A program made the position numbers and the translations under genes. From the NCBI GenBank assembly GCA_043811375.1, contig JBDRNJ010000040.1, positions 1 to 59,670 on the forward strand: a stretch of DNA of 59,670 nucleotides, written 5' to 3'. A model generated the notes under the pieces. The model saw only the letters and a list, made by a program, of their open reading frames with translations. It made no database searches and was not told the origin of the DNA. Numbering within the stretch: position 1 is the first letter of the stretch; every line of letters begins with the position of its first letter. Below, piece after piece: positions 26,097 through 34,801 of the stretch. This DNA is from a bacterium. Lineage in GTDB: Bacteria; Zixibacteria; MSB-5A5; GN15; FEB-12.

Positions 26097-27002
26097 GTGA
26101 AACTTGCTAATCTATTGATGGAGCGCCGCATCAAGATCGAGCTTGAGGCCCGTACCAAGGCTGACGCGGTGCAGGAATTGCTGGAACTGGTCAGACGGGA
26201 AGGTGTCAGGATCGACTACGACGCCGTTCTGACGTCGATACGGGAACGGGAGGAAGTGGAGGATACGTCCTATGGACGAGGCGTGGCTTTCCCCCACGCC
26301 CGCACTGACGCCGTCGAGGAAATGTTCATCCTGATCGGCATCTCCAAAACCGGCCTTGAGGACAAGACTCCCGACAACGTGCCGGTGCACCTGGTCTGCC
26401 TGCTGCTGACGCCTTCGACCATTGCCAAACTGTACCTGCAAACGCTCTCGGGTCTGGCGGCTTTTGCCCGTGTGCCGGGGACTCTGGAAAAGCTGCTGAC
26501 CGTCAAGACCGAGCGCGATGTAATCAAGCTGATTTCCAGCGCCAATGTTACCGTCGACAAGGAATTGATGGTCAAGGACGTCATGCGACTCGACGTGGTT
26601 ACCGTAACTACCGATGATACCCTCAAAGACGTTGCCAACAAGATGTTTCGTCACCGCCTGTCGGCCCTGGCGGTAGTGGATGAAAACCGCAAACTGTTAG
26701 GTGTCATCAACGACCGCGACCTGATCAAGGCGGCGCTGCCCGACTACCAGGCGCTGATTTCCAATCTCAATTACTCACTTGATGTCGAGCCGTTTGAGGA
26801 ACTGCTGAAACAGGAAGACAAAATCAAGGTTTCGCAGTTGTTCCGGGAACATTACGAAGTCACTACTCCGGAAACACGGATTGTGGAAGTGGCGGCAATG
26901 ATGATTTTCAAGGATGTTGTGAGAGTTTTTGTCACTTCCGAAGACAACCTGGTCGGCGTTCTGTTGCGCAAGGACATCGTCAATATGATCATCCGGGGCT
27001 GA
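26097..27002 (+). CDS. PTS IIA (Ntr/Fru-type) domain fused to a CBS pair
   Basis: RE...T..GRGVAFPHAR containing the phospho-His. C-terminal VKDVM...VVD...LLGVI CBS repeats. Confidence 0.85.
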   Translation: MKLANLLMERRIKIELEARTKADAVQELLELVRREGVRIDYDAVLTSIREREEVEDTSYGRGVAFPHARTDAVEEMFILIGISKTGLEDKTPDNVPVHLVCLLLTPSTIAKLYLQTLSGLAAFARVPGTLEKLLTVKTERDVIKLISSANVTVDKELMVKDVMRLDVVTVTTDDTLKDVANKMFRHRLSALAVVDENRKLLGVINDRDLIKAALPDYQALISNLNYSLDVEPFEELLKQEDKIKVSQLFREHYEVTTPETRIVEVAAMMIFKDVVRVFVTSEDNLVGVLLRKDIVNMIIRG

Positions 27003-27054
27003 CAGGCAAGCCTGACTCATTTCTCATGGATAACGGAGCATATCGAAAGTTTTC

Positions 27055-28257
27055 ATGACACCCCCCTCCAAAAAGCACGACATTGATCCTTATCTTTACC
27101 TCATTCTGGCACTGGTCCCTTTGATTTGCCTGCCGGGGCTGGCGATCGGCCTGTTTTCAATTCACCTGGCGCCGCATCTGAGCGTGCTGGTGCTGGGATT
27201 CGGGATCTTTGGCGCTGCTTTCATTCTTTCGTGGGCGGCCGAGGCGGCCCAGATGGATATCTCCGAATCGCTGGCGGTGGCCATCCTGGCGCTGCTGGCG
27301 GTGTTGCCGGAGTATGCCGTTGATTTTGTATTTACGTGGAAGGCGGCTCACGACCCATCCCAGGCACATTATGCCATAGCCAACATGACCGGCTCCAACC
27401 GGTTGCTGGTCGGACTCGGCTGGCCGATGGTATTACTGCTATATATCTTGGCTAAAAAGAAAAAGCGTATCGTTCTGGATGAATCGCTACGCGTAGAGAT
27501 TTTTTACCTGATGATGGCTACCCTTTACTCGTTTACGATCCCCTTAAAGGGGAGCCTGACGCTGATTGATACCGTCATACTGGTCTTGCTTTTTGCCCTC
27601 TACGCCCGACGGGCGGCACAGATGGAGACTACCGAGCCGGAAATGGTGGGACCGGTGAAGATCATTGCCAATATGAGCAAGGTTTCCCGTCGGATTGTCA
27701 CGATTCTCATGTTTGCCTTTGCCGGATTGGTCATATTCTCTGTTGCCGAACCGTTTGCTGTGTCACTGGTGGAGATGGGACGGCGGTTTGGCATCGACGA
27801 ATTCCTGCTGGTGCAGTGGCTGGCGCCGATTGCATCGGAGTCACCGGAGTTCATTGTGGCTGCAACCTGGGCCATGCGGGGAGCAGCCGGGCCGGCGCTG
27901 AAGGTGCTGATATCGTCGAAAGTCAACCAGTGGACTCTCCTGGTCGGCACGATTCCGCTGGTTTTCGCTATCTCCGGGGGAGCCATCCGGCCGTTTGTGC
28001 TGGACAGTCTGCAGCAGCACGAGCTTTTTCTGACGGCGGCACAGTCGTTGTTTGGTGTGGCGGTTCTGGTCAATCTCAGGTTCAGTCGCAGCAACGGACT
28101 GCTGCTACTGGCTCTATTTACCAGCCAGTTGATCGTACAGCAGATCAGGATGGAGGTCGCCGTGCTCTATCTACTGCTGGCCGTAGTGTACGGTATCCTG
28201 CACCGCAAGTGCCTGCTGCCGGCGACGCTTATCGGCCTGGGATTGACGAAAAAGTAA
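27055..28257 (+). CDS. Cation:Ca2+ antiporter (CaCA / Na_Ca_ex family)
   Basis: Alpha repeats LAVLPEYAV...ANMTGSN and ASESPEF...LISSKVNQ. About 11 TMs. Confidence 0.85.
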   Translation: MTPPSKKHDIDPYLYLILALVPLICLPGLAIGLFSIHLAPHLSVLVLGFGIFGAAFILSWAAEAAQMDISESLAVAILALLAVLPEYAVDFVFTWKAAHDPSQAHYAIANMTGSNRLLVGLGWPMVLLLYILAKKKKRIVLDESLRVEIFYLMMATLYSFTIPLKGSLTLIDTVILVLLFALYARRAAQMETTEPEMVGPVKIIANMSKVSRRIVTILMFAFAGLVIFSVAEPFAVSLVEMGRRFGIDEFLLVQWLAPIASESPEFIVAATWAMRGAAGPALKVLISSKVNQWTLLVGTIPLVFAISGGAIRPFVLDSLQQHELFLTAAQSLFGVAVLVNLRFSRSNGLLLLALFTSQLIVQQIRMEVAVLYLLLAVVYGILHRKCLLPATLIGLGLTKK

Positions 28258-28310
28258 GTGTGCTCCAGCCGGACCGAAGTGGTCCCAAAAAGTAAGTTTC
28301 TTGAGAAAGT

Positions 28311-28648: not shown

Positions 28649-29575
28649 TTATTTGAACCGCTTGGGACGGCGAGCCTCCCACTCGACTACAATCGGGCTG
28701 GCCACAAAGATGGAACTGTAGGTTCCGACCACCACACCCAGGATGAGCGCCAGCGAGAAGTAGCGCAACACTTCACCGCCAAAGAAGAAGAGAGGACCTA
28801 CCACCAGGAGTACCGTCAGGGAAGTATTGAATGTTCTCGACAACACTTCATTGATGGAGGCATTGACGGCACCGGCAAATTCGCCCTTGGTGCGGTATTT
28901 TTTCAGGTTTTCCCTGATGCGGTCAAATACGACCACCGTGTCTGTTAATGAATAACCGGCCAGGGTCAGCAGGGCGGTGACGATCAGCAAGTCGAATTCC
29001 AGGTTCAGCAGGTAGAGGATTCCCATAACTGCCAAGACGTCGTGGAAAGTCGCGACGGTGGCGGCGATTCCAGAGCGGAAGTCGAAACGAATCCAGATGT
29101 AGAAAACAATACCGAACAACGACAGCAACACCGCCTTCTGGGCATCGCCACGGAGTGTTTCACCGACGGCCGGGCCGATGATGTGCTCGGATACTATGGT
29201 GAAGTTGTTGCCGGTGAACTTAGTCTCAATTATCTGCTTCAACATCACCAGTCGATCACGGCTTTCAGCTTCGGATTCGGGTCGCTTGGTCTTGATGATG
29301 AAAGCATTGGGTTCGGTGAAATCCTTGAGGTTGGTGATCTGAGCGTCGGGAAATTCCGTCGTCACAGCCGCCCGCAGATCATCGATAGTCACCGACTGAT
29401 CGAAATGACCGGTCACCATAACACCGCCGGCGAAATCGATTCCCAGATTGGCCTTGCCGGTGGCGATCATGACGAAGCCGACAACCCCGATTATGACCAG
29501 CGCTACCGACAGCACAAAGGCGTACTTGCGAAGGCCAATGAAGTTGATATTGGTCTTACCAATTATTCTGAACAT
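28649..29575 (-). CDS. secF: Protein translocase subunit SecF
   Basis: LGIDFAGG, HD, GYSLTDTVVVFDRIREN, GTYSSIFVA. Confidence 0.96.
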   Translation of the reverse strand: MFRIIGKTNINFIGLRKYAFVLSVALVIIGVVGFVMIATGKANLGIDFAGGVMVTGHFDQSVTIDDLRAAVTTEFPDAQITNLKDFTEPNAFIIKTKRPESEAESRDRLVMLKQIIETKFTGNNFTIVSEHIIGPAVGETLRGDAQKAVLLSLFGIVFYIWIRFDFRSGIAATVATFHDVLAVMGILYLLNLEFDLLIVTALLTLAGYSLTDTVVVFDRIRENLKKYRTKGEFAGAVNASINEVLSRTFNTSLTVLLVVGPLFFFGGEVLRYFSLALILGVVVGTYSSIFVASPIVVEWEARRPKRFK

Positions 29576-29595: not shown

Positions 29596-31320
29596 TTAAA
29601 TGCTCAGGGTACGGTACCCTTTACGAATGTCAAATATCTGTTTGGTTATGATATAGGCCGTGTAAAGAGAGATGGTGACACCCCAGAAGAGGGTCACGGC
29701 AAACCCCTTGATCGGCCCCGATCCCAGCAAAAACAGAGCTGCGGCCGTGATCAGGGTAGTTACGTGCGAATCAAAGATAGCCACAAAAGCCCGTTGGTAG
29801 CCGGCGTCAATCGAGGCTCGGACCGTCTTGCCGGTGCGCAGTTCCTCGCGAATCCGTTCAAAAATCAGGATGTTGGCATCGACTGAAATACCTATGGTCA
29901 GGATTATACCGGCAATACCGGGCATCGTCAGCGTGGCGCCCAGGGCAGCCATAACCGCCAGCAGGAAAAAGATGTTAAACAGCAGGCCGACGTCGGCAAT
30001 GATACCCGACAGGCGGTAGTAGACACCTACAAACAGCAGCACCAGGCTCAGCCCCACCAGCGAGGAGAAAAACCCTTTGCTGATGGAGTCGATTCCCAGG
30101 GTAGCGCCGACGACGTTCTTTTCGATGATCTCCACCGGCGCCGGCAGAGCACCTGCCTTAAGGACGATCTCCAGGTTGCGGGCATCCGTTATGGCGGCGG
30201 AAGATCCCATGGTGATCTGGCCTCGGTTGCGAATCTTGGAATTGATAAACGGTGATGATTCGACCTTATTGTCGATGACAATCGCCAGCGGCTTGTCGAT
30301 GTTGGCGCCGGTCAACTGGGCAAAACGGGCGGCACCGTCACCGGAAAGGGAGAAATTCACCACGTAACCACCATAGCTGTCCTGGCCGAGGGCGATGTTT
30401 TCCAGAAACTTGCCCAAAAATTGCACCTTACGTTTGACCAGATAGAGGAGATAAACTTCTTTGTTGTTGCGTATCTCAGGCCGGGTGGACCAGGCAAACT
30501 GGACATCAATCGGGATAACTCTCTGCACTTCGGGCATGTTGAGCCAGCGGTCAATTATTTCCCGGTCCTTTTTTGATACGGCAAACCCGGGCCAGTTGGT
30601 GGTGTTACGATTGTTGTACAGAGCCGTCTCCAGCCGGGAAGTGAGCGGTCGTTCGTTTTCGTCAAGCCCCATATCATCATCGAACGCGAACATTTCAGTG
30701 GTGTCGATGGCGCTGTCGCCCATCAGCTCGGCCAGCATGTCGATCTCTTCGGCGGCCGTTGTGTCAACGATGTCGGCGACCGGTGTCTCAGCAGTAACCG
30801 AATCCTCAACAGTTGTCCCGGTTATCATTCTTTCGTACTCGTGGATCACGGAATCAACTTTGGTCAGTATCAGGGTTGCGTTGTCGAATGTTTCCAGCAG
30901 CTTGAACTCCAGCAGTGCCGTTTGACCGATCAGGTCCTCGGCCCGCTCGGCATCGGTATAACCGGGCAGGTCGACGATGATGCGGTCGGTGCCCTGTTTC
31001 TGGATTACCGGTTCGGCCACACCCAGGCCGTCGACGCGGTTACGAATGATCTGAATGGCGCGCTCGACAGCGTCCTCGCGGGCACCCGGGTCAAGCTCCT
31101 CCATTTTAACCCGCAAAACGACATGGATACCTCCCTGCAGATCCAGTCCCAGCCGGATGGCCTTCTGTTGCAGATTCAACAGAGCACCGGGATCTCGCTC
31201 CTGGAGCGACTCCCGGTCAGTATCGCTCATGGTCCATAGCTTGAAGGTATTCCAGAAGGCGATGCAGGCGAGGACGACCAGAATTGCGGTCAGTATAATT
31301 CGCCAGTTGTGTTTGGGCAT
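29596..31320 (-). CDS. secD: Protein translocase subunit SecD
   Basis: LGLDLQGG, RNRVDGLGVAEP, LKAGALPAP, VDANILIFERIREE. Confidence 0.96.
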   Translation of the reverse strand: MPKHNWRIILTAILVVLACIAFWNTFKLWTMSDTDRESLQERDPGALLNLQQKAIRLGLDLQGGIHVVLRVKMEELDPGAREDAVERAIQIIRNRVDGLGVAEPVIQKQGTDRIIVDLPGYTDAERAEDLIGQTALLEFKLLETFDNATLILTKVDSVIHEYERMITGTTVEDSVTAETPVADIVDTTAAEEIDMLAELMGDSAIDTTEMFAFDDDMGLDENERPLTSRLETALYNNRNTTNWPGFAVSKKDREIIDRWLNMPEVQRVIPIDVQFAWSTRPEIRNNKEVYLLYLVKRKVQFLGKFLENIALGQDSYGGYVVNFSLSGDGAARFAQLTGANIDKPLAIVIDNKVESSPFINSKIRNRGQITMGSSAAITDARNLEIVLKAGALPAPVEIIEKNVVGATLGIDSISKGFFSSLVGLSLVLLFVGVYYRLSGIIADVGLLFNIFFLLAVMAALGATLTMPGIAGIILTIGISVDANILIFERIREELRTGKTVRASIDAGYQRAFVAIFDSHVTTLITAAALFLLGSGPIKGFAVTLFWGVTISLYTAYIITKQIFDIRKGYRTLSI

Positions 31321-31423
31321 GAAATATCCCTTTCCAGTATTCTTAGATTATTGTCAGATTACCTGTCGGCACCCAGAAGCGCCCACGACTTGTCTCAATC
31401 CCGGCAAGGCGGGACTTCAGACG

Positions 31424-31876
31424 TCAGCCGGTGCCTGATGGCTTGCTGCCCACCAGAGTGAGGAGTTGCCCCAGGTCTGAGGAAATAAGGCTGGTTGATG
31501 TCAGGACTTCACGTTGCCGAACCTGTCGGTCGGAGAAAACAACAGTTGGACGCTTGAAAATACCCTGTTTCTTGAGACGTTTCTCGCTGTTGTCCGGCTT
31601 CAGGACGGGAGCCAGTAAGAAAGCGACCGACTGGCCGCCGCCCGGACGGCCATTGGTGGCCAAATTCTCCTGATCGCTGTCGGAGAGGAACCGGGCTGGT
31701 ATCCATTCCCGATTTTCCAGGGCCGCTTCGGACTGGCTGGTTGCAATCCCATCCGGAGACCACAGCCGACCCACGGCACTACTATCAGGTATGGTCAGGA
31801 CAGTAATGACGGTTACCGCCACCAGCCGGGTTACTGTAGTTGTGAACCGAATCGTTTTTTTATTCCAATGCTTCAT
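31424..31876 (-). CDS. Secreted hypothetical protein upstream of secD (candidate arrest-peptide leader)
   Basis: 150 aa from MKHWNKK with a signal-peptide-like N-terminus. TTGACT/TATATT promoter at 31890-31917. Ends 103 nt before secD. Confidence 0.65.
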   Translation of the reverse strand: MKHWNKKTIRFTTTVTRLVAVTVITVLTIPDSSAVGRLWSPDGIATSQSEAALENREWIPARFLSDSDQENLATNGRPGGGQSVAFLLAPVLKPDNSEKRLKKQGIFKRPTVVFSDRQVRQREVLTSTSLISSDLGQLLTLVGSKPSGTG

Positions 31877-32032
31877 TTCAAGTTTGGCGAATATAGCACT
31901 TTCTTTACCCAAGTCAACGCGCTTTTTCAGGTACGGTTGACAGACGCCTGCCGGGGATATAGCTTCCTTCATATTATCGTAAGTAACGGTATCGAGCTTG
32001 AATTGACAGATAAGCCACTCAAGGAGAAAGAA

Positions 32033-34801
32033 ATGACAGGGAGACGAATATCTGCAAAAACCTGGCTGCCGGTAATTCTGCTGGCGTTGTTACCGCTCCG
32101 GGCACCGGCGGAGACCGGCGGTACCACCCAGTACCGGCTGGACAACGGTATGGAAGTCATTCTCAAGGAAAACCACAGTTCGCCGATGGTAGCCGGCATT
32201 ATCTTCATCAGGTCCGGCAGTAAGTATGAGTCAACGTATGAAAATGGCATCACGCATTTCCTGGAACACCTGCTCTTTAATGGCACGGTGACTAGGACCA
32301 GGGAAGAGCTGGATGCCGCTATAGATAACCTGGGCGGCTATATCAATGCCTTTACGCGCAAAGAGTTGACGGCATTTTTTGTGTTGATGCCGAAGCAGTA
32401 TATCGAGTTCGGGATGACGGTCGAGGCGGATATGCTGTTTAATTCGATTTTCTCTGAAGAAGAAATGGCCAAAGAACGAAAAATAGTGATCGAGGAAATA
32501 AATCGTGATACCGATTCCCCCGGGGCGGCGGCTGACGCCTTTTTTATGGAGAAAGCATACGCCGGTACCGACTATAATCGCCCGGTGCTGGGGTATCGAG
32601 CTTTCATCGAGAATATCACGCGCCAGGCGGTTATCGATTACTGGCGTCGATTCTACCTGCCGCGAAACATGACGATGCTGGTTATCGGCGATTTCGAAAC
32701 GTCGGAGATGAAACAGACGGTATCAGGGATTTTTGGCGATATAGGCGACGGGACCGATGATTCTACCCGGGCAACCGACCCGTCCGAACGGGAATCGGCC
32801 GGGAGCACGACGGCAGAAACCGTCCTGACCGGGCAGAATATCTTCGACACCGTGGCCAACGTCACCTCCACCTATATCAACTTCTCGTTGGCGGCGCCCC
32901 ATCATTCTGACTCCGGGTACCTGGCGATGGATTTGTTGAGCCGGTTCCTGGGAATGGACGAAGTGTCACCACTGGTGATGGCTCTCACCGGCGGCGCCAA
33001 CCCGCTGGCCACGGAGGTTGGTATCGATCTGGCGACTTACAGCGAGTTCTCACGGCTGGAAATATATGTCATTACCGACAACCCGGACCATCGCGATACT
33101 ATCGTTTCGACGTTGCTGGAGCAAATGAAAGCTATCGAGCAGTATGAAGCTGATCCGGAGACAATCGCCGGTATCAGGACCAGTGTGCGCTGTAACGAGA
33201 TTTACAACAGCCAGAAACTACACTACTACGGTTTTTTGATATCGTCACGCATTATGTCGGTCGGCTGGGATTTCATTGAAAGCTACGGCGACCGACTGGC
33301 TGAGGTAACCTGGGATGATTGCCGTCAGACGGCCGAGCGCTGGCTGACCGAACCGCAGTACGTGGCTACCGTGGTCAGGCCGGCTGCCGACAGCGGTCAG
33401 GTTGCCTATCGACCACAAGGCCTCAGCGCCGATGAAGTGAAAGCTCATTTTGATACTGTTGTTTTCCCCCCGCAGGAACTGGTGGCCGGCCATGAAATAA
33501 CCTATCCGGAAACCGAGGGAGCGGCATTTAAGCTGGTCGACCCGGCTCAATACCACCGGGAGGTGCTGGCCAACGGTCTGACGGTTATCATTAAATCGGA
33601 TCCGGACTGTCGCGTTTTTGCCGCCAATGTACTGGGTCGCAATCGCACGGCCAATGAACTGCCGGGGAAGGCCGGTATCACCGATTTCGTCAACCGTTGC
33701 CTGGAGAAAGGCACCATTACATACAGCGCCGGGGAACTCCAGCACCAACTGTCGTTGATTGGAGCCAATACCGCGTTCTACGATAATCCGTGGATTCCCT
33801 ATGACGACCGTTACACGACGCGCCGGTACTCATTCCTGAAATTCGAAACAATTGATGAGTTCGCCGAGCAGGGACTGGAGCTTTTCGGCGATATGGTGCT
33901 GAATCCTGCCTTTGACTCAGCCGAGGTGGAGAATATTCGCCGGTCCATGTTCGGCATCCTGGCCCGCCATGGCGGCTCGCCAAGCAACGTGGCACGTGAT
34001 CTGTTCTATACTGCTCTTTTTGAGGGTGAGGCGTACGCCAAGAGCATTATGGGTACCAGGGGCACTATCGGTTCCATTACGGCAGCCGATCTGAAGGCGC
34101 ACCACGCCCGGCAGTACTCGCCCGAGAACATGATCCTGTCGATTGTGACCAGACGAAGCGTAGATGAAGTGCGCCGGTGGATAGCTGATTCTTTTGGTGC
34201 TGTTCCCGCTGTCGGTTTCGTTTCAACCCCGGCCGGGTGTCCGCAACCTTCGGATACAATGTTGCAGGCCCACAGTGATATGGAGAAAAAGCAAATTGCC
34301 CTGTACCGGGGCTGCCTGACGCCGGGCGCCGGCAGCGACGATGCGGTGTCTCTGACGGTGGCGTCATCGATTCTCTCACGACGACTCGGTCTCACCCTGA
34401 GAGAAAAGCAGGGTCTGGCCTATTCGGTGGGGGCGAGCACTCATCTTGACCGGGATTTCGGCTGGTTTTACACCACTATCGGCACCTCTCCCGAAAATTA
34501 CCAACAAGCCCTGGACGGCATAGCTTTTCAGATTGAGAAACTCCAGATGGACGGTCCCAGCCAGGTGGAATTGAACCGGGCGCGTAACGACCTGTGGGGA
34601 CGCCTGATGCGGGCCAAGCTGTCAGGCATCAACCAGGCTTATTATCTTGGTGTAAATGAGTACCTGGGACGCTCCATGGACTATGACAACGACTTGTTGC
34701 AGCAACTGACGGGAGTAACGGCTACATCTGTCAGAACCGCCGCTTCCCGGTATTTCAGAACCGATCGGGGCGTTCTGGTTAGTGCCGGAAAACGACCGTA
34801 A
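32033..34801 (+). CDS. Secreted M16 (pitrilysin/PqqL-like) zinc protease
   Basis: AAGGAG RBS, signal peptide, HFLEH motif, NAFT, LREKQGLAYSV in the C-terminal half. Confidence 0.93.
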   Translation: MTGRRISAKTWLPVILLALLPLRAPAETGGTTQYRLDNGMEVILKENHSSPMVAGIIFIRSGSKYESTYENGITHFLEHLLFNGTVTRTREELDAAIDNLGGYINAFTRKELTAFFVLMPKQYIEFGMTVEADMLFNSIFSEEEMAKERKIVIEEINRDTDSPGAAADAFFMEKAYAGTDYNRPVLGYRAFIENITRQAVIDYWRRFYLPRNMTMLVIGDFETSEMKQTVSGIFGDIGDGTDDSTRATDPSERESAGSTTAETVLTGQNIFDTVANVTSTYINFSLAAPHHSDSGYLAMDLLSRFLGMDEVSPLVMALTGGANPLATEVGIDLATYSEFSRLEIYVITDNPDHRDTIVSTLLEQMKAIEQYEADPETIAGIRTSVRCNEIYNSQKLHYYGFLISSRIMSVGWDFIESYGDRLAEVTWDDCRQTAERWLTEPQYVATVVRPAADSGQVAYRPQGLSADEVKAHFDTVVFPPQELVAGHEITYPETEGAAFKLVDPAQYHREVLANGLTVIIKSDPDCRVFAANVLGRNRTANELPGKAGITDFVNRCLEKGTITYSAGELQHQLSLIGANTAFYDNPWIPYDDRYTTRRYSFLKFETIDEFAEQGLELFGDMVLNPAFDSAEVENIRRSMFGILARHGGSPSNVARDLFYTALFEGEAYAKSIMGTRGTIGSITAADLKAHHARQYSPENMILSIVTRRSVDEVRRWIADSFGAVPAVGFVSTPAGCPQPSDTMLQAHSDMEKKQIALYRGCLTPGAGSDDAVSLTVASSILSRRLGLTLREKQGLAYSVGASTHLDRDFGWFYTTIGTSPENYQQALDGIAFQIEKLQMDGPSQVELNRARNDLWGRLMRAKLSGINQAYYLGVNEYLGRSMDYDNDLLQQLTGVTATSVRTAASRYFRTDRGVLVSAGKRP

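Follow-up and report, generated by a model that had tools for sequence, protein, structure and literature searches.

A candidate secretion-monitoring leader with a distinct C-terminal motif upstream of secDF in Zixibacteria

The leader gene and its surroundings

The window, as we call the whole 59,670-nt stretch of Zixibacteria DNA that was analyzed, carries secD (29596..31320, minus strand; 574 aa; Pfam PF21760, PF22599 and PF02355) and secF (28649..29575, minus strand; 308 aa; PF02355). secD's Shine-Dalgarno (SD) sequence, GGAAAGGGA (31327..31335, minus strand), was read from the sequence and is similar in relatives. Directly upstream lies a 150-aa ORF (31424..31876, minus strand), called the leader here, which ends DLGQLLTLVGSKPSGTG-TGA, also written LTLVGSKPSGTG-stop. 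It is separated from the secD ATG at 31320 by 103 nt. This arrangement, described in the first-pass annotation, was confirmed and is conserved in relatives.

The annotation had also given the leader its own promoter, and a sigma-70-type promoter, TTGACT-16-TATATT, was found at 31890..31917 (minus strand). The same pattern stands before 83 of 89 homologues, so it is no chance match. Since it is the only promoter match between that point and secD, it is likely the secDF promoter. The leader ATG of the window copy lies 13 nt past the -10 box and has no visible SD. An ATG is found within 40 nt of the promoter pattern in 83 of the 89 loci and lies 8-16 nt past the -10 box in 77 of those 83, which implies a 5' UTR of only a few bases. 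The start chosen by gene callers, ATG 31972 (182 aa), is upstream of the promoter, and the conserved start is 31876.

In all 38 leader-less Zixibacteria loci examined (9 from the first set and 29 of 30 taken from 50 matches), a promoter of this kind stands 33-129 nt ahead of secD. It thus seems that the leader was inserted between secD and the secD promoter. The earlier proposal that it occupies the slot of yajC did not survive, as these leader-less loci have the promoter there and yajC is on another contig (G000:C6:95544-95777). The YajC Pfam family, PF02699, had no match in the leader.

Two further features of the neighborhood were recorded. A TTGACA at 31937-31942 (plus strand), about 20 nt upstream of the leader promoter, points away from it and is likely the -35 element of a divergent M16 peptidase gene (32033-34801, plus strand); this back-to-back layout is seen again in many relatives. 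On the other side of secDF, 26097-28257 (plus strand) encodes a protein with PTS EIIA-like and CBS domains, followed by a Na/Ca exchanger-family gene.

Architecture and distribution of the leader

Charge and hydropathy heuristics predict a Sec signal at 31775..31876 (minus strand), with a basic n-region (residues 1-17), an h-region (LVAVTVITVLTI, residues 18-29) and a small-residue c-region to about A34. The n-region has a net charge of at least 1 in 82 of 83 members, in agreement with the basic N-terminus noted at first. The hydrophobic core had been called weak; its best 12-residue Kyte-Doolittle mean is 2.76, close to the family median of 2.9, and it is not weak. Members are 136-158 aa long, and 104-126 residues (median 119) separate the end of the h-region from the C-terminus (83 members). 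Most of this distance is a spacer rich in S, A and P and without a predicted fold (31460..31774, minus strand). Four spacer positions (31577-31663, minus strand), 50-78 residues before the C-terminus, are 71-88% conserved: 72 (M in 88%, L in the window copy), 78 (P), 84 (A) and 100 (R). They are a possible release element. The structure model of the leader (pTM 0.28) shows no fold, and its only confident helix is one at the N-terminus.

The conserved tail, TLVGSKPSGTG plus the stop codon (31424..31459, minus strand), is the candidate arrest motif. Across the family it reads (F)TLVG(A/S)(K/R)PSGT(S/G)-stop and is near-fixed. Pairwise identity averages 8-20% in residues 1-125, rises to 31% in 126-139 and reaches 81% in 140-150, so conservation is concentrated in the last 11 residues while the middle has diverged, as the annotation's view of the leader called for. 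A profile of the family matched 259 library proteins, and among the best 150 of these, 149 fitted the end pattern and the 150th had the same spacing. Pro at -5 and Gly at -3 were present in all 149 pattern-fitting proteins. The motif stands at a fixed distance from the stop across the family. Positions -3, -5, -8 and -10 are invariant, the final residue can be S, G, M or I, and conservation has faded out by around position -25. The stop codon itself varies (TAA 49, TAG 27, TGA 13), and its usage is not clearly unlike that of secD and secF.

At the DNA level, third codon positions in the tail are free to vary (entropy 1.1-2.0 bits), the first two positions are mostly fixed, and all four codons are used for both P(-5) and G(-3). 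The pN/pS ratio is 0.23 in the tail vs 0.86 in the middle, values to be read only as a contrast because synonymous sites are near saturation. Judged on this codon pattern, the tail is conserved as protein.

In a first survey, secD was collected from 60 relatives, and 59 genomes, including the window's own, had a usable secD start; none was obtained from G044 and G049. All 50 loci of three families (f1 37/37, f4 9/9, f2 4/4) carried the leader directly upstream of secD, and none of the 9 loci of the sister family f3 did. The synteny with secD that the annotation had expected is thus borne out. Searching with the single protein returned only two relatives, one of which, labelled Zixibacteria, shares the tail. 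In a wider survey, a 48-row profile was run against 285 genomes of the phylum and matched 104/107 genomes of f1 (one weakly), 30/33 of f4, 4/5 of f2 and 0/14 of f3. Outside these families there were matches in 5/125 genomes, all with E above 6e-4 and without the tail. Five non-matches were checked: four also lacked a secD start, and in the fifth the secD start is 107 nt from a contig end. Among 40 further hand-picked matches, secD is directly downstream in 39, and the 40th is at a contig end. Altogether, secD lies downstream of the leader in all 89 loci with enough flank, and nearly all matches have one copy per genome.

A GTDB-wide search with the tail as a DNA pattern gave about 121 matches, of which 119 were evaluated. 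secD was downstream in 92, and 3 were at contig ends. The other 24 had no secD in 300-700 nt, 13 of them ending in TGG and not a stop; judged on their reading frames alone, these 24 were treated as chance. The secD-linked records are mostly titled Zixibacteria, with two titled candidate division GN15 and some other labels, and a clade-type SecD start was seen in 6 of 7 of the other-labelled records looked at. A quick SecD tree of 41 rows, from which an extraction filter had dropped 3 of the 9 f3 rows, set f1, f2 and f4 together apart from the other rows, by a branch of support 100. This would fit a single gain of the leader if the root lies among other orders.

Several loci depart from the common form. 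In L003 (G010:C8, about 27845-28290), an in-frame TAA follows the promoter-proximal TTG by about ten codons and cuts these off, and a later ATG with an SD-like AAGAGG retains the hydrophobic core and an intact tail; an assembly error or a re-start variant could explain this. The single-contig genome G118:C1 has two leader-secD copies, L103 and L104, both with the full tail. The f2 leaders L044, L046, L047 and L050 are 137-195 aa long, end in KPSGVS and lie 166-260 nt from secD, and in three of them 80-89 nt separate the ATG and the promoter pattern.

No known family accounts for the leader. Pfam had no match in 48 members, NCBIfam gave one weak FtsX match in 1 of the 48, PDB sequences gave nothing below E 0.27, Rfam had no match in 10 loci, and the ESM Atlas returned nothing useful. 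The statement that the leader has no known folded domain holds in these searches and in the model.

RNA between the leader and secD

The first-pass annotation had proposed an mRNA stem, GGCACC/GGTGCC, that uses the last leader codons. The arms are complementary as written, but their ensemble pair probability is 0.0, the fold of the region is no more stable than those of shuffled sequences (z -0.22), and neither arm covers the secD SD (31335-31327). The complement is present in only 2 of 89 loci, and we set this stem aside. Two other candidate elements were also rejected: a conserved intrinsic terminator, found in only 10/89 loci, and a hairpin internal to the tail, in which one pair is broken in 71/89 (alifold energy -0.25). 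Pairing of the post-stop tract with mid-intergenic RNA was borderline (48/89, p 0.033).

The intergenic RNA was then folded with and without ribosome cover, as the annotation had suggested, by covering the leader plus 12 nt in 120 nt of leader context; only equilibrium folding was considered. The 85 loci used leave out the four long f2 gaps. The cost of opening the ribosome-binding site (RBS) went from 7.00 to 6.95 kcal/mol, with drops of over 1 kcal/mol in 20 of the 85 loci and rises of over 1 in 21. With the same test, the E. coli secM control went from 8.07 to 3.80 kcal/mol. Since the secM drop is large (4.3 kcal/mol) only with 120 nt of context and 0.7 kcal/mol with 60 nt, the 120-nt test is fair and tests with 60 nt are weak. 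Tract-SD and leader-SD pairs from the same locus were no stronger than swapped pairs. RBS access was equal in length-matched leader and leader-less loci (p 0.41), and an apparent difference (7.0 for leader vs 5.2 for leader-less loci) vanished after this matching. A conserved SD-unmasking switch of the SecM/VemP/MifM type was thus not found across the family.

Just after the leader stop, the family has a C/U-rich, G-poor tract, a candidate Rho loading site, whose position in the window is 31399..31423 (minus strand). C, U and G make up about 36%, 35% and 15% of the first 20 nt. Pyrimidines account for a fraction of 0.67 vs 0.49 in 207 own-genome controls, C exceeds G in 43/50 tracts vs 80/207 controls, and tract pyrimidines exceed those after secF in 21 of 25 genomes; the loci are kin and not independent, so that p-values for these comparisons overstate. 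In 39 further loci the fraction is 0.70, and the window copy is weak at 0.56. The first 25 nt after E. coli tnaC, a single comparison, have the same make-up (36% C, 32% U, 16% G). Of 61 genomes, 59 have Rho, which also occurs in the leader-less f3, so its presence does not discriminate. At about 20-25 nt, the tract is shorter than the usual 60-80 nt of Rho sites. Its base composition, whatever the order of the bases, raises the cost of SD opening by about 0.7 kcal/mol. Weak, non-specific masking of the SD by the tract is therefore an alternative to a Rho step.

An export-sensing arrest peptide and its alternatives

We propose that the leader is an export-sensing arrest peptide. Taken together, export, arrest, release of the stall by pulling and a feedback to secDF make a probable reading of the locus; because the motif resembles no tested arrest motif that we found, the function is argued from layout alone. 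The N-terminus of the leader would engage SecYEG while the tail sits in the exit tunnel. The tail would then block termination while its final residue occupies the P site, or else cause an elongation arrest one or two codons earlier. If the leader arrests at all, the stop codon is the slightly favored site, because the motif-to-stop spacing is fixed and stop-dependent secDF leaders have been described in the available text of PMC10987492. Pulling by export would free the stalled chain, so that stall time would report export capacity and a long stall would raise SecDF output. As to how the stall could reach secD, the stalled ribosome may cover the post-stop tract and keep Rho from ending transcription before secD, as with TnaC. 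This Rho gating is our leading guess, though somewhat short of an even chance, and the weakest step. The complete combination of new motif, stop-codon stall, TnaC-like Rho attenuation in place of SD unmasking and near-leaderless mRNA is, as a whole, rather unlikely.

Slightly less likely still is an arrest peptide that melts a hairpin masking the secD SD, the classic SecM/MifM/VemP way. SD unmasking is the mechanism of the characterized monitors, as far as the available parts of the LudP preprint (bioRxiv 10.64898/2026.10.26.761930) and of PMC10987492 describe them. The C/U tract can pair with the purine-rich SD, tract replacement raises SD access by more than 1 kcal/mol in 29 of 85 loci, and swap and shuffle tests are weak against composition-driven pairing. 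Against this stand the near-absent shift in RBS opening, compared with the large shift of the secM control, the swapped pairs that did as well as the own pairs, and the equal access in length-matched leader-less loci.

Two other readings dispense with stalling. In one, the peptide is exported and its free C-terminus, once released, serves as a ligand or protease signal for SecDF or for a partner in the periplasm; this would also explain the fixed motif-to-stop distance, and an exported-type M16 peptidase is encoded divergently from the leader. However, the very last residue is the one that varies, conservation is confined to a tunnel length, a similar divergent peptidase gene adjoins secD in leader-less f3 loci, and the leader is nearly always single-copy with secD next to it at every flanked locus; we regard this reading as improbable. 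Far less probable is an incidental ORF whose tail is conserved for a role of the RNA or DNA (a hairpin, riboswitch or binding site). The tail is somewhat rich in C-ending codons and its folding is slightly stronger than that of synonymous recodings (mean z -0.48), but the free third codon positions, the broken pair in the candidate hairpin and the lack of Rfam matches in 10 loci speak for the protein.

The arrest-peptide reading agrees with published sequence criteria, which we took from the available text of PMC10987492. All four of its sequence features for Sec/YidC monitors are seen in the leader: a small upstream ORF of unknown function directly before a sec gene, an N-terminal signal or TM segment (here by charge and hydropathy heuristics), a C-terminal stretch that homologues conserve, and a spacer of over 30 residues. 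The layout of signal, spacer and C-terminal motif is that of SecM, ApdA, ApdP and the RQH family. In contrast to these, the tail has no RAPP/RAGP/RGPP-like motif and reads (K/R)PSG with one Pro; the RAPP/RAGP-like motifs near the C-terminus of SecM, ApdA/ApdP, ApcA and the RQH family are absent from it, so the annotation's view that the motif is of another type stands.

Vibrio VemP is also an exported-type leader directly before secDF (secD2-secF2) with a long spacer. Spacer medians are 119 residues for the leader, 133 for VemP and 131.5 for long SecM, the latter two as given in the available part of PMC10987492. The Arg at position 100 (72%) recalls VemP Arg-85 in what could be consulted of PMC7793623, an analogy that we infer. 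VemP differs in that it arrests in elongation and acts by SD unmasking; the leader shows no such switch and no family match. The secDF leaders of PMC10987492, whose arrest, according to the text available, needs the stop codon, also lie upstream of secDF and have a motif fixed to the stop. They differ in motif and come from Bacteroidota and Firmicutes, whereas the leader has its invariant Pro at -5 and a variable last residue. LudP, the subject of a structural preprint (bioRxiv 10.64898/2026.10.26.761930), is described in the accessible portion as a 147-aa protein with a signal peptide, immediately upstream of secDF in a narrow clade, with an arrest element of about 15 residues. It differs in having IHNSDGEKE ten residues before the end, in arresting during elongation and in belonging to Clostridia. 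The NAP-stop, DGMK-stop and IHxSDGEKE motifs of uDF_NAP-stop, uDF_DGMK-stop and LudP, as those sources give them in the parts available, are absent from the tail. For the coupling step, the model is E. coli TnaC, in which, according to the available text of 10.1101/2021.03.31.437805, the ribosome stalls with the stop codon in the A site and masks the rut site that immediately follows this codon and otherwise loads Rho. TnaC differs in being 24 aa long, in sensing tryptophan, in having no export signal and in ending in Pro.

Neither 'zixi' nor 'PSGT' was found in the main text of PMC10987492 or in the available text of the LudP preprint, and neither KPSGT nor RPSGT was found in the PMC10987492 supplements, the large tables of which were covered in part. 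Since the genome list of that study, in the part available, includes at least 17 Zixibacteria, 7 of them of order GN15, the raw leader ORF may sit unclassified in its tables. A literature search on arrest peptides upstream of secDF returned only the known set, one on Zixibacteria and secDF returned nothing, and one on Zixibacteria and arrest peptides only unrelated work. No published mention of the tail motif strings was found, in a coverage that leaves most subscription papers outside. By its sequence, the leader is not a member of the SecM, VemP, RQH, NAP-stop, DGMK-stop or LudP families; most likely it stands for a family of secretion-monitoring arrest peptides with a new motif of its own.

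Homology searches cannot find arrest motifs, and every additional motif is another way to jam the ribosome; here, the 259 library representatives already rank the residues for mutation. If the complete combination described above is true, a force-sensing input would be joined to a transcription-termination output, and if the Rho step holds, secretion monitors would have a second output mode. As an arrest peptide, the leader would also mean that an uncultured phylum gained feedback on secDF independently.
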